Below, piece after piece: positions 18,257 through 20,928 of a DNA stretch of 64,000 nt. The stretch lies in assembly GCA_038065615.1 (NCBI GenBank), contig JBBTQQ010000001.1:76207-140206 (forward strand). The letters run 5' to 3'. Position 1 is the first letter of the stretch. The number at the start of each line of letters is the position of its first letter. This DNA comes from Patescibacteria group bacterium. GTDB lineage: Bacteria; Patescibacteriota; Doudnabacteria; UBA920; VMFF01. The notes under the pieces are model-generated. The model was not told where the DNA came from, did not search any database, and saw nothing but the letters and a program-made list of their open reading frames with translations. Position numbers and translations under genes: made by a program.

Positions 18257-18469
18257 CTATTCTAGCTCAGTCACAGCCTCTGATAACTCTCGATCAGCCC
18301 ATGCTTCCGTGTGCTGCATTTCCTTACTCAATGCCGCCAGATTAACATCTGACTCCCTAATATCCTTATCTAACTCGTCTATCAACGCCGCAGTCTTATG
18401 CATGAACTGGGCATTTGCCTGTTTTAGGTTATCACTTAAGCTATTTAATTCTTGTGTTGTGGTATCCAT
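18257..18469 (-). CDS. hypothetical small helical protein (70 aa)
   Basis: ORF lying 3 nt downstream of the 687-aa gene, so probably co-transcribed. Helical/charged composition. Confidence 0.4.
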   Translation of the reverse strand: MDTTTQELNSLSDNLKQANAQFMHKTAALIDELDKDIRESDVNLAALSKEMQHTEAWADRELSEAVTELE

Positions 18470-18472
18470 AAA

Positions 18473-20536
18473 TTATTTTTTCTCTTTTAAACCCCAGCGC
18501 TTTATCAATAGCCTGCTGAACCAACCAACTGTTTTTTTATTCTTCCTGTTATCAAACTTTGGTTCGTGTGTTCTTTTATATTGTTCTGTGTCGTCCATGA
18601 ATCTAGCAGTGCTTAAAGTGGTATTGCCTTCGCTTGAAATATCAGGATCATGCTCTTGGAGTTTTTCTGGACTTATATCATCAGCGTCATCGGAAAGATC
18701 ATTCCAAAGTTCACAAAGGCTTGCAATGTCAGCTTCTTGAGCATAGAACTCATCACTTTCTTCATCAACATAACCATCCATCTTACCTATTTGATTTTCA
18801 ATGAAGAACTCTTTGAATTTCTGAACATCTTCTTTAAATTGTGCTACTTCCTCAGGTTTAGATCCAAGAGATTCATCTGTTAAATGCGCAAACTGGTTCT
18901 CAATGATCTTTTTAAAATCTCTTAATTTTAATACGTGCTTATTTTTTCTATCAGGGAACATAGAATCAGCGTCTTCTGAAAAAGTTTTCAAATCCAACTG
19001 AAACTTTTCAGAAAAACGTTGATCCCAAGCAGTAACCAAGTGTTTTATATCAAACCCGTTGTAACCAAACTTTCTTACTTTCTTTTCTATCACTTCTGTT
19101 TCTGCGGCCTCTTCACCTTCCTCAGGTCCTGTTCCTTGTTCTGCTTCTGGTTCAGAAGGTTCAATAACTGCTTCAACTGTTTCTTCGGGTGCTTGAGCTT
19201 GAGGTGCTTCTTCTCCTGGCATACCGTCAGATGGCTCTATAGTTACGCCTTCAGCAATTGCTTCTGGTGGTGTTCCTGGCACAAGCTGAGACGGTGTTGC
19301 TGTTTGTTCTTGGGTTTCTTCTTCTTGTGACCCTGATCTTAATTGTTTCTGAACTTCACTCTCAAAAATATTCCAATCACTCTCTGATATTTCTTTATCA
19401 GAAAGTTCTTGAACAATATATTTAAAAGTCAGATAATTAACACCTTCTACTTTTATTTTTGGATTAACAAACATCTCAAGTTGTTTCGCTGTTATTCTCA
19501 GCTTATTCCCCAACACGCCATTCCAAAGCTTACGCATAACCTCTGGATCAAGTTTGTTTGGTTTTTTCTGTTTCTCTCTATCTTCTCTAGAAAACGCGTC
19601 CATCCTAGCTCTGACTGCAGCCATGTCTTCTTGATCAGCATCATGATGCGCGTACTTATATTCTCTATTCAAAACCTTCTCATATTGCATTCGTTTCGCT
19701 CGCCAAGAGACAACCTTCCCTGTTACAGATTCGATTGAACTCCCCAATCGCTTTGCTTCTTTGGTTCTTTGATCTAAGTTCTTTTGATAATCCTTAAGCT
19801 GGAGCCTTATTTCTCTAATCTGTTCTCCATATGCATCTTTGTCAAAATCAAATCCGGCTCTTGCCTGAACTCTTTCCATCTGATCAAGAATGTTTTCTGT
19901 TTCATCAACATTTGATTGGAACGTTAATATTTCAGAATCAAGCTGTTGCTTTCTTGCACGCATAACCTCTAAACTAGCTTCCTGTGGTTCTAAACGTTCG
20001 TTAACTCTTTCGACGACTCCACTTGCTATACCTTTAACTTTTTTCTCGTAAACTTGTTTTTTGTAATTAACACTTTCTAAATTTAATCGGGCTATCTCTC
20101 GTTCATTTTTAACTTGCTCCATTCTGTGCATCAAAGTTTCTCTATCTTTCTGGGATTTTCTAGAACGTTCTTGGCTACTGCCAAATCTATGCTCCATGTC
20201 AGCATCAGCAATGTCTTGTCTTCTAATACGGTCTTCTAGGGCATGTACCTCTCTATCATGATCATTATGTTGTGAAGAAAATTTTCCTGCCTTTTGGTCT
20301 TGTCTCTTATAACTAGAATCGTTCCACCATGTCTGCAAACGCTCTACTGTTCCAATTCTAGCAGTTGTTTTAACAGAAGAAACAAATTCTTTAGTGTTGT
20401 TTCTTACGCGCTCTAAAAACCCTGGCTGATTATTAATATCCAGGCTTTCGTCTATTTCTACTTGTGGTTTGTTTTTTGTTTCAGTGTCATTTGCTTCAGC
20501 TTGTGGCTGATGCTCAGGACTGTGCGCTTCGGTCAT
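18473..20536 (-). CDS. hypothetical large acidic coiled-coil protein (687 aa)
   Basis: Long uninterrupted ORF. Heptad-like charged repeats, a Pro/Glu-rich low-complexity linker (PEAIAEGVTIEPSDGMPGEEAPQAQAPEETVEAV...). No TM segment or signal peptide, and no catalytic motif recognised. Confidence 0.5.
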   Translation of the reverse strand: MTEAHSPEHQPQAEANDTETKNKPQVEIDESLDINNQPGFLERVRNNTKEFVSSVKTTARIGTVERLQTWWNDSSYKRQDQKAGKFSSQHNDHDREVHALEDRIRRQDIADADMEHRFGSSQERSRKSQKDRETLMHRMEQVKNEREIARLNLESVNYKKQVYEKKVKGIASGVVERVNERLEPQEASLEVMRARKQQLDSEILTFQSNVDETENILDQMERVQARAGFDFDKDAYGEQIREIRLQLKDYQKNLDQRTKEAKRLGSSIESVTGKVVSWRAKRMQYEKVLNREYKYAHHDADQEDMAAVRARMDAFSREDREKQKKPNKLDPEVMRKLWNGVLGNKLRITAKQLEMFVNPKIKVEGVNYLTFKYIVQELSDKEISESDWNIFESEVQKQLRSGSQEEETQEQTATPSQLVPGTPPEAIAEGVTIEPSDGMPGEEAPQAQAPEETVEAVIEPSEPEAEQGTGPEEGEEAAETEVIEKKVRKFGYNGFDIKHLVTAWDQRFSEKFQLDLKTFSEDADSMFPDRKNKHVLKLRDFKKIIENQFAHLTDESLGSKPEEVAQFKEDVQKFKEFFIENQIGKMDGYVDEESDEFYAQEADIASLCELWNDLSDDADDISPEKLQEHDPDISSEGNTTLSTARFMDDTEQYKRTHEPKFDNRKNKKTVGWFSRLLIKRWGLKEKK

Positions 20537-20589
20537 GAGTATAATTTAATACATCTTAATTATACAATATTTATACCAAAACTCATAAT

Positions 20590-20928
20590 TTAAATATCTT
20601 CCAGCTCTGCTCTGTTTTGCATGTTTGTAGCAGAAACTTCTTCTGGTTCAAAAGAAAAGGTTGAATCAATAACTTCGCTAACTAGATCTTCCTGAGCAGT
20701 TTGTCTTGCGGTCTGAACTTTATCTTCTTGTTTCTGTGCCTGGATTATCTTCCTGTTTATCTCATCAATATCTTCAAGCTGGTTTTGAACCTTTTTTAAC
20801 AATACTTTTTCATACTCATCAATACCCATAATTACCAAGACTGGGTTGCCCTGTTCATCAATTACAAAGAACTTCCCCCCGTCAGCCTTAGCTATATCAA
20901 TGAGTTTCTTTAGGTTATCCATGGGCAT
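20590..20928 (-). CDS. hypothetical protein (112 aa)
   Basis: ORF upstream of, and on the same strand as, the 687-aa gene. No recognisable motif. Confidence 0.4.
   Translation of the reverse strand: MPMDNLKKLIDIAKADGGKFFVIDEQGNPVLVIMGIDEYEKVLLKKVQNQLEDIDEINRKIIQAQKQEDKVQTARQTAQEDLVSEVIDSTFSFEPEEVSATNMQNRAELEDI

Follow-up and report, generated by a model that had tools for sequence, protein, structure and literature searches.

A linked three-gene module between fusA and tuf in a Doudnabacteria lineage and its possible role as a cytoplasmic scaffold complex

RESULTS AND DISCUSSION

Three linked genes between fusA and tuf

What are three genes without an assigned function doing between fusA and tuf, the genes of the elongation factors EF-G and EF-Tu? 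The question is raised by a stretch of 64,000 nucleotides (nt) from a Patescibacteria group bacterium (contig JBBTQQ010000001.1 of assembly GCA_038065615.1, positions 76,207 to 140,206), called here the window, in which three co-oriented open reading frames (ORFs) of 112, 687 and 70 amino acids (aa), designated p112, p687 and p70, lie between the two genes (Table 1). A first-pass annotation had located these ORFs correctly and described them as orphans splitting the str operon by 3.9 kb. The gap measures 3,204 nt (21296-18093), and none of the three is an orphan: p112 belongs to a widespread Patescibacteria family, and p687 and p70 form a pair kept in distant relatives. We propose that the interval holds a vertically inherited three-gene module whose products form a cytoplasmic scaffold complex. 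Taken whole, we regard this statement as evenly poised between right and wrong; its descriptive part, that is, gene order, conservation, purifying selection, family relationships and domain architecture, is held with high confidence.

The order fusA, variable opposite-strand gene, p112, p687, p70, tuf was present in all close relatives recovered (L001 to L009, EF-G 95-97% identical); the fusA products of the relatives carry EF-G Pfam domains. L107 and L108 (EF-G 88% and tuf 94% identical) also have this order, with coiled-coil proteins that share only 21-23% identity with p687, and in L095 (EF-G 91% identical) the trio stays together in permuted form, as a coiled-coil gene (451 aa), a small gene (83 aa) and p112. 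Moreover, a close relative, “Candidatus Doudnabacteria bacterium” Gr01-1014_77, has an in-frame fusion of p112 and p687 (TSC65665.1; P0211; 739 aa), which joins p112 residues 1-98 (95% identical) to p687 residues 38-686 (75% identical) and thereby drops exactly the two poorly conserved termini; a p70 homologue is the adjoining locus tag. The order or linkage kept in all these loci, together with the fusion, indicates that the insertion is old and that the trio is inherited vertically as a linked unit. The first-pass annotation had also argued against a recent insertion, from a host-like composition, and both points stand: the GC content is 0.35-0.40 over the three genes, the same as in the flanks, and the arrangement is common to relatives with 88-97% EF-G identity. 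Cotranscription of the trio, suggested at the same time, is probable, given the spacers of 53 nt between p112 and p687 and of 3 nt between the stop codon of p687 and the ATG of p70. Homologues with a housekeeping function, in an arrangement universal to the lineage, had been named as the outcome that would count against that first description; the arrangement is indeed universal in the clade, and no housekeeping function could be assigned to the homologues.

The exact p687 sequence is deposited as GenBank MEK7651694.1 (hypothetical protein, Patescibacteria group bacterium). Its near relatives are labeled Candidatus Doudnabacteria, and the nearest species representatives in the genome collection (EF-G 73-74% identical) are labeled Candidatus Saccharibacteria. 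As a separate observation on L095, high-GC sequence encoding a 403-aa membrane-type protein (8008-9219, opposite strand) replaces the expected tuf past the p112 homologue; this switch may reflect either a chimera of the assembly or a genuine rearrangement.

In order to measure selection on the trio, we compared the window with three relatives (L001, L004 and L007) using the ratio of nonsynonymous to synonymous substitution rates (dN/dS). Synonymous sites were saturated across the trio (proportion of synonymous differences, pS, of 0.5-0.9), and nonsynonymous change was limited. The dN/dS ratio was 0.06-0.08 for p112, 0.13-0.21 for p687 and ca. 0.09 for p70 (from the single comparison with a measurable dS), compared with 0.03-0.05 for fusA and tuf. 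All three are real genes under purifying selection. Within this regime p687 evolves about ten times faster than EF-G (dN of 0.27-0.32 versus 0.02-0.03), with identities of 54-61% where EF-G is 95-97% identical and of ca. 22% where EF-G is 88-91% identical. This rate suffices to explain the 21-23% identity of the coiled-coil proteins in L095, L107 and L108, and no gene replacement is needed.

The gene order of the classical str operon (rpsL, rpsG, fusA … tuf, rpsJ) is kept in the window, with extra genes at the operon borders. The adjacency of fusA and tuf is not: the 3.2-kb gap holds a terminator-like hairpin, four ORFs and separate promoter-like sites. Of this content, the first-pass annotation had seen the three ORFs and overlooked both the hairpin behind fusA and an opposite-strand ORF (20934-21224). 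Its premise that tuf normally follows fusA directly is not the norm in Patescibacteria. Among 80 loci sampled through EF-G, the spacing was ca. 6-150 nt in recognizable bacteria outside the candidate phyla radiation (CPR), whereas 27 of the ca. 37 loci with Patescibacteria-type labels or content, several of whose taxon labels are obvious mis-binnings, had gaps of 450-5,059 nt with one to seven ORFs. The cargo was diverse, including small transmembrane proteins, pilin-like proteins and a lipoprotein. The junction is therefore a habitual site for extra genes in Patescibacteria, where a split of this kind is nothing out of the ordinary. In Gammaproteobacteria, multigene insertions have been described at the borders between ancient translation operons (PMC6735719); the present one differs in lying inside the str operon, between fusA and tuf, with a putative fusA terminator and separate promoters, and in being fixed in the clade. 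That a junction nearly invariant in other bacteria often takes extra genes here matters for operon-based annotation and for marker-gene binning.

p112 belongs to a Patescibacteria-wide family of small proteins

Clustering of the ORFs found in these gaps returned one recurrent family, that of p112, present in L011, L012, L015, L016, L023, L028, L029, L038, L039 and L043. A profile search yielded at least 610 homologous clusters, with labels that include Uhrbacteria, Falkowbacteria and Patescibacteria group; they are unnamed or “hypothetical” except for two automated labels, one an antitoxin name and the other a ribosomal-protein name. Five members picked by sequence alone all lay between fusA and tuf, four of them directly upstream of tuf, and the family occupied this interval in every context sampled. 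Judged by these searches, p112 is a member of a Patescibacteria-wide small-protein family. It is characterized by an N-terminal motif (LKKxIxLxKKTGDxxxVxD…xVxMxxxxYExL), a middle helix motif (LTExxLxDKINRDI) and an acidic C-terminal motif (FxFEP or WxIP), which in the window reads EVIDxxFxFEP. The NCBI annotation starts p112 at Met3, giving a protein of 110 aa.

The N-terminal motif fits the hairpin-plus-helix core of the Pfam family PhdYeFM_antitox (PF02604). p112 itself matched this profile at E=2.7e-4 (21.1 bits, below the cut-off of 29.8) over profile positions 12-50 of 74, and 34 of 90 family members matched it at E≤0.01, the best at 1.1e-6. An hhalign comparison of the family with Escherichia coli YefM gave 17% probability, over the hairpin and helix only. 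The AlphaFold2 model of the monomer was mediocre, with a predicted local distance difference test (pLDDT) score of 67, and consisted of a helix (residues 3-15), two strands (19-23 and 29-33) and a long helix (36-86). A Foldseek search of this model against PDB found nothing at E<0.9, with YefM chains at nonsignificant values of 1.4-3.2, and the family profile matched nothing meaningful in PDB. Like Phd/YefM antitoxins, p112 is small, has a beta-hairpin followed by the “EY” helix and ends in an acidic, partly disordered C-terminal half. Unlike them, it lacks an evident first strand, has with its relatives a fixed position between fusA and tuf in many Patescibacteria, and belongs to a family with its own middle and C-terminal motifs. 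No cognate toxin (Doc, YoeB, RelE or similar) was found beside p112, its neighbor being tuf in most Patescibacteria and p687 here. Given the subthreshold match, the mediocre model and the absence of a toxin gene accompanying the family, we call p112 Phd/YefM-like on sequence grounds, and not a Phd/YefM antitoxin.

p687 and p70 form a conserved pair

p687 is, by its sequence relationships, a fast-evolving coiled-coil protein of an undescribed family. A word-indexed search gave five close clusters (54-97% identity), and an exhaustive profile search gave 77 representative homologues, 40 of them at E≤1e-10 (best E to 1e-31). The typical member has 410-460 aa and a single copy of a C-terminal domain with an invariant Trp-Asn (WNxYFGSxL), here called the WN domain; copies vary from one to four in the family, and P0007 appears to have four. 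The alignment is collinear, starting with an N-terminal helix motif (…F/LFxRLxExxKEF…VDRxK…) and continuing through a rod with the motifs NxKKxxYE, ERLxPxE (with an invariant proline), AxFxFEK and WRxK.

In p687 the long helices of the predicted antiparallel rod were mostly modeled by AlphaFold2 at a pLDDT of 72-93. Two WN domains were detected when p687 segments were compared by hhalign with the C-terminal domain of short family members, and W338/N339 in the first of them (W308/N309 of the query segment) are the sole columns invariant family-wide. The first-pass description of p687 as a helical, acidic protein without transmembrane segment, signal peptide or enzymatic motif agrees with our results, as does the acidic Pro/Glu-rich linker (residues 403-490, 11 Pro, net charge of -20). 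The highest 19-residue Kyte-Doolittle mean is 0.34, and by composition and hydropathy there is neither a signal peptide nor a lipobox, the N-terminal 38 residues being acidic (net charge of -7) without a hydrophobic core.

The cationic amphipathic tail of p687 has 15 columns invariant among six close relatives and was modeled as a low-confidence helix at residues 672-680; it is a candidate membrane-binding helix. The C-terminal amphipathic helices of MinD and FtsA are similar in being short, rich in Lys/Arg and Trp/Phe/Leu, and of high hydrophobic moment. The p687 tail differs in being absent from distant family members, so membrane tethering is not the general mode of action of the family, and it could equally bind nucleic acid or protein.

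Known families offered no counterpart. Searches of Pfam, NCBIfam, PADLOC and PHROGs with all ORFs and with the distant homologues returned only subthreshold coiled-coil noise. SMC/MukB ATPase heads were not detected in p687, whose only coiled-coil match was TIGR02168 (21.8 bits versus a cut-off of 567). ClyA-family toxins (YaxAB, AhlB and SmhB) appeared in Foldseek at E values of 0.45 or worse, and p687 has no hydrophobic head or tongue segment. The profile of the short coiled-coil family matched nothing meaningful in PDB. DivIVA, EzrA, the coiled-coil-rich proteins of the crescentin/FilP type and CT398/HP0958 show no sequence homology to p687, which lacks the zinc ribbon of CT398, the N-terminal transmembrane segment of EzrA and the lipid-binding domain of DivIVA; in turn, none of those families has anything equivalent to the WN domains or the obligatory small partner gene. 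Widening the search added little, since low-complexity candidates overwhelmed a word-indexed search with the wide coiled-coil alignment, which gave only one new protein, and a metagenome scan with the closer alignment gave only eight short contigs. A 435-aa gene in the fusA-tuf gap of L093 was considered as a p687 relative and rejected; it looks lipoprotein-like, and the coiled-coil profile matched no other fusA-flanking locus.

p70 is 74-77% identical in relatives, and L108 has an ORF of its size and position. It is predicted to be a small partner of p687, helical and coiled-coil-like, whose translation is coupled to that of p687. Downstream sequence is available for six distant p687 homologues (L095, L096, L098, L099, L101 and L104), and each of them is followed directly by a p70-like gene of 79-93 aa, with spacers from a small overlap to 37 nt. 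These partners match the p70 hidden Markov model at E values of 1e-12 to 1e-32 and have a common C-terminal motif, IDxAVLEF. The presence of a p70-like gene after every such homologue makes p687/p70 a conserved two-gene unit. The pair can be defined by the N-terminal helix motif, a three-helix rod (NxKKxxYE, ERLxPxE and WRxK), at least one WN domain and a helical-type gene of 70-93 aa immediately downstream, all of which are found in p687/p70.

Predicted transcription units and the candidate tuf leader

The signals in Table 1 suggest three transcription units. The first, rpsL-rpsG-fusA, would have its own promoter and terminator. The second, p112-p687-p70, would be read from a leaderless-type promoter, possibly assisted by an internal extended -10 element, and end at a terminator that overlaps the tuf promoter. 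The third would be tuf alone, read from a consensus promoter of its own through a conserved structured leader to a terminator. Promoter-like sites match the consensus at 12/12 positions before rpsL, at 10/12 with a TG extension before tuf and at 11/12 before rpsJ. The terminator-like hairpin behind fusA also follows fusA in L004 and was not listed by the consensus scanner. The site at p112 would yield a leaderless mRNA starting at Met3 (20922); its block is conserved in L001, L004 and L007 and is shared with the divergent plus-strand promoter, although L004 lacks a gene on the opposite strand. Within the p112-p687 spacer, TGTATAAT is a possible internal promoter.

The 164-nt spacer between p70 and tuf is 94% identical among relatives whose tuf genes differ at 21-32% of synonymous sites. 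It contains, in this order, a palindrome, the tuf promoter, a hairpin with a U-run, a AATAATTAATT box and a second structure just before the Shine-Dalgarno sequence. The palindrome may be a candidate operator or a short hairpin. The hairpin with the U-run, replaced in L108 by a hairpin of different sequence at the same position, is likely the terminator of the p112-p687-p70 unit; transcripts from the tuf promoter would escape it because they would lack its 5' arm. The consensus promoter reported earlier for tuf (18222-18194) is present. It had been regarded as acquired through the insertion, a view at odds with other p112-bearing Patescibacteria loci, which also show a structured-leader spacer of ca. 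100-150 nt before tuf. In Saccharibacteria, the tuf promoter and terminator regions of TM7x have been used for an expression cassette (PMC10633639), in agreement with tuf forming a unit of its own as a general feature of the group.

The second structure is a tuf leader, preceded by a ATAATTAATT box, with a folding z-score of -2.9 and nearly identical in close relatives. Its architecture recurs in L011, L012, L028, L029, L038, L039, L042, L043, L092, L093, L105, L106 and L108, in the general form of a closing stem whose two strands enclose an unpaired (U)GG followed by one or two inner hairpins, the whole ending 9-35 nt before the ATG. The closing stems differ between lineages and yet pair (UGCCC/GGGCA, CGGC/GCCG, ACGGC/GUCGU and AAACCCU/AGGGUUU). 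By our count, the motif is found in ca. 14 of 17 distinct p112-bearing loci versus ca. 3 of 40 without p112. A covariance model of the three-way-junction form, which misses the two-stem forms, gave eight strong instances (its seven training sequences and the new L042), each downstream of a p112 homologue. Covariation on this subset was modest (score of 0.165 versus 0.112 for shuffles, with 7 of 500 shuffles reaching it), and its closing stem was poorly registered. An Rfam scan of the leader gave no match, and RNAalifold predicted no structure on a mixed MAFFT alignment of tuf leaders. Autoregulatory leaders of ribosomal-protein genes are comparable, as conserved structured 5' untranslated regions that directly precede the ribosome-binding region in a gene for translation; the tuf leader differs from them in having no Rfam family and only modest covariation.

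A proposed scaffold complex and its alternatives

In our proposal, p112, p687 and p70 would act jointly as a nonenzymatic scaffold complex inside the cell. p687 would be a cytoplasmic rod whose two, perhaps three, WN domains are connected through acidic disordered linkers; these domains, together with the acidic tail of p112, would provide interaction surfaces, and the p687 tail would probably tether the complex to the inner face of the membrane in this sublineage. What we infer from sequence is that a complex forms, where in the cell it lies, which promoters and terminators are used, and what the trio does; scaffold function considered alone is a tentative suggestion that we hold to be rather doubtful. 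Several points weigh against the proposal. None of the three proteins has a characterized homologue, in the families searched, to support a function. The AlphaFold2 model of p687 has a mean pLDDT of 60, with low confidence outside the rod, and its Foldseek search against PDB gave no match below E=0.17 and nothing specific. P0007 and P0010, both distant homologues, lack the tail, as do the short forms. Metagenomic contigs that are more distant (L096 and L097) have the pair away from fusA-tuf, for example, beside corA/cysS/dnaB or an ftsX-like gene, and the link of p112 to the pair may be clade specific. TSC65665.1 comes from a metagenome-assembled genome, so the fusion could be an assembly artifact or a deletion. 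Finally, the promoter and terminator calls are consensus matches only.

The position of p112 invites another explanation, in which it regulates EF-Tu synthesis via the tuf leader RNA or the promoter-proximal palindrome, with the coiled-coil protein and p70 modulating or sequestering it. We consider this unlikely, and it is compatible with a scaffold. It would account for the p112 genes lying between fusA and tuf in five of five independently sampled contexts (four directly upstream of tuf) plus at least 10 loci sampled through fusA, for the enrichment of the leader motif in p112-bearing loci, for the strong covariance-model instances all being downstream of p112 homologues and for the conservation of the p70-tuf spacer; the TSC65665.1 fusion would tie p112 to the coiled-coil protein. 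Nucleic acid binding and dimerization are functions of the Phd/YefM N-terminal domain, and more than a third of the p112 members examined match PF02604. However, the co-occurrence of p112 and leader may reflect shared ancestry alone, the leader covariation is modest, L015, L016 and L023 have p112 and lack the leader motif by the criterion used, p112 is not adjacent to tuf in the window, and its model is of low confidence (Foldseek YefM at E of ca. 1.4). An extended version, in which the p112 family and the tuf leader make up a Patescibacteria-specific EF-Tu control circuit with the coiled-coil/p70 scaffold physically coupled to it in this clade, strikes us as quite improbable; if true, such a circuit would tie the supply of a translation factor to a membrane-associated or cell-state signal in ultrasmall symbionts.

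Two further explanations were considered. p687, with or without p70, might be exported without a classical signal peptide, as a fiber, adhesin or effector of an episymbiotic lifestyle, an idea in line with the secreted-effector or surface-fiber suggestion of the first-pass annotation. The very fast divergence of p687 is typical in pace of proteins facing host or phage, the variable number of WN domains indicates modular gain and loss, and weak, nonsignificant fold matches included IpaB, ClyA-family pore-forming toxins and NadA. Coiled coils commonly evolve fast for structural reasons, however, and selection on p687 is purifying overall. The protein has no signal peptide, lipobox, transmembrane segment or hydrophobic head segment like that of pore-forming toxins. 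It is tightly linked, and in one case fused, to a small cytoplasmic-type protein inside a housekeeping operon, no secretion-system genes lie near it, and it has no PADLOC or PHROGs match, its distant homologues giving only weak coiled-coil-type matches. The export idea thus comes down to fast divergence, and we think it improbable. Still further from our expectation, and very improbable indeed, is a toxin-antitoxin or abortive-infection-like module with p112 as the antitoxin and p687 and/or p70 as a noncanonical toxin or sensor. The weak matches of p112 to Phd/YefM, to RelB-like proteins and to a PHROGs antitoxin (E=0.006), together with the tight packing of the trio, would agree with it. In most Patescibacteria, however, the gene after p112 is tuf and not a toxin gene, the order in L095 (coiled-coil, small gene, p112) speaks against such a module, p687 and p70 match no toxin family or PADLOC entry and p687 has no enzymatic motif, and a trio inherited strictly vertically at one fixed housekeeping locus does not resemble mobile toxin-antitoxin systems.

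Patescibacteria account for a large share of bacterial diversity, and the role of most of their conserved proteins is unknown. The three families described here are undescribed in Pfam, NCBIfam, PDB, PADLOC and PHROGs and in the literature searched, and are of familiar kinds: genes specific to a lineage and inserted at an operon border, a scaffold built of coiled coils and a small antitoxin-like protein standing alone. With these results three “hypothetical proteins” become defined, testable objects. Of most interest are the fixed position of p112 across Patescibacteria, as a CPR-wide small protein usually right before tuf at the center of the translation gene cluster, its natural fusion to p687 and the candidate tuf leader, beside an undescribed two-gene coiled-coil family that has a small new domain and evolves unusually fast. 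If p112 does regulate EF-Tu, it would add, in organisms whose genomes are minimal, a layer of translation control specific to the lineage.

Table 1. Positions of the features discussed; numbering is that of the window except in the last two rows, which refer to the relatives named
Feature	Position	Strand	Remarks
rpsL	24335-23928	minus	
rpsG	23923-23423	minus	
fusA (EF-G), 704 aa	21297-23411	minus	last gene of the rpsL-rpsG-fusA unit; EF-G of relatives 88-97% identical
fusA intrinsic-terminator-like hairpin GAGCCGACAGACGCG-TAAT-GCGCTTGTCGGCTC plus T-run	~21229-21272	minus	read from sequence; putative function
Opposite-strand ORF, 96 aa as listed	20934-21224	plus	GC 0.476 versus 0.35-0.40 around
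Promoter TTGACA-17-GATAAT of the plus-strand ORF	20959-20987	plus	11/12 match
p112 promoter-like TTTGCA-18-TAGAAT	20929-20958	minus	abuts ATG; 9/12 match
p112, 112-aa ORF	20590-20928	minus	
TGTATAAT, extended -10-like	20559-20566	minus	in p112-p687 spacer; conserved in L004 and L007, TGTATACT in L001; no -35 hexamer
p687, 687-aa ORF	18473-20536	minus	
p687 residues 39-289	19670-20422	minus	conserved N-terminal helix plus long helices 63-118, 122-226 and 230-289; predicted antiparallel coiled-coil rod
p687 residues 326-402	19331-19561	minus	first WN domain (…LWNxxxGxKLxI…); hhalign 96%, E=1.8e-9
p687 residues 403-489	19070-19330	minus	acidic Pro/Glu/Ala-rich linker, predicted disordered; pLDDT <50; aligns poorly among relatives
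p687 residues 490-590	18767-19069	minus	second WN domain; hhalign 92%, E=5.6e-7
p687 residues 595-660	18557-18754	minus	possible degenerate third WN-like segment (…LCELWNDLSDD…), acidic; visual resemblance, hhalign 5-7%
p687 residues 661-687	18476-18556	minus	cationic amphipathic tail (…KKTVGWFSRLLIKRWGLKEKK); net charge +8, hydrophobic moment 0.60
p70, 70-aa ORF	18257-18469	minus	
Palindrome CCACAGGTGTGG (perfect CCACAGCTGTGG in relatives)	18238-18249		15 nt upstream of tuf -35; conserved; only such site in the window
tuf promoter TTGACA-17-TAATAT, TG extension	18194-18222	minus	conserved in L004 and L007, one change in L001; present in L108
Hairpin plus U-run	18158-18191	minus	starts 3 nt after tuf -10; conserved; the window shows a compatible C-to-U change
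tuf 5'-leader structure	18108-18135, with 18140-18150	minus	closing stem UGCCC/GGGCA, unpaired UGG, inner hairpin; ends 15 nt before ATG
tuf (EF-Tu)	16902-18092	minus	apparently a stand-alone transcription unit
Terminator-like hairpin	16881-16867	minus	just after tuf stop
p111, 111-aa ORF	16516-16851	minus	between tuf and rpsJ
rpsJ promoter TTGACA-17-TAAAAT	16498-16470	minus	
rpsJ	16424-16107	minus	followed by S10/spc ribosomal genes
Slot genes of L001 and L007, 207-208 aa	6849-7472 (L001); 6852-7478 (L007)	opposite	
Slot genes of L107 and L108, 140-176 aa	4032-4454 (L107); 3672-4100 (L108)	opposite	signal-peptide-like N-terminus

Other genes at and near the locus

Between the fusA terminator and the p112 promoter, each sublineage has an unrelated high-GC opposite-strand gene, or nothing, as in L004. 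The GC content of these genes is 0.48-0.59 versus 0.39-0.45 for their loci, and the conserved divergent promoter block precedes the slot in the window, L001, L004 and L007. The slot looks like a hotspot for acquired cargo. In the window it holds the plus-strand ORF, whose probable start is Met28 at 21015 behind GGAGGA, giving a hydrophobic protein of 69 aa; it matched no family in Pfam, NCBIfam, PADLOC or PHROGs.

On the other side of tuf, p111 had no family match in Pfam or NCBIfam. It is 40-51% identical in relatives (tblastn), with a dN/dS ratio of 0.12-0.30, and is absent from L108. Conserved yet fast evolving, it is a second insertion specific to the clade within the translation gene cluster.

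A high-GC patch upstream of rpsL (24560-24900) was considered as a structured RNA and rejected, since its substitutions show clear codon periodicity; Rfam gave only a subthreshold match there (CRISPR-DR12, E=0.47). The patch covers a 100-aa ORF on the plus strand (24577-24879) between an M50 peptidase gene and the rpsL promoter, with a GC content of 0.53 versus ca. 0.38 for the genome. Its amino acid identity in relatives is 65-68%, its substitutions fall 17/18/54 by codon position, and the ratio of nonsynonymous to synonymous differences (pN/pS) is ca. 0.3. Conservation and third-position bias thus mark it as a real gene, which is uncalled in the annotations of the relatives.

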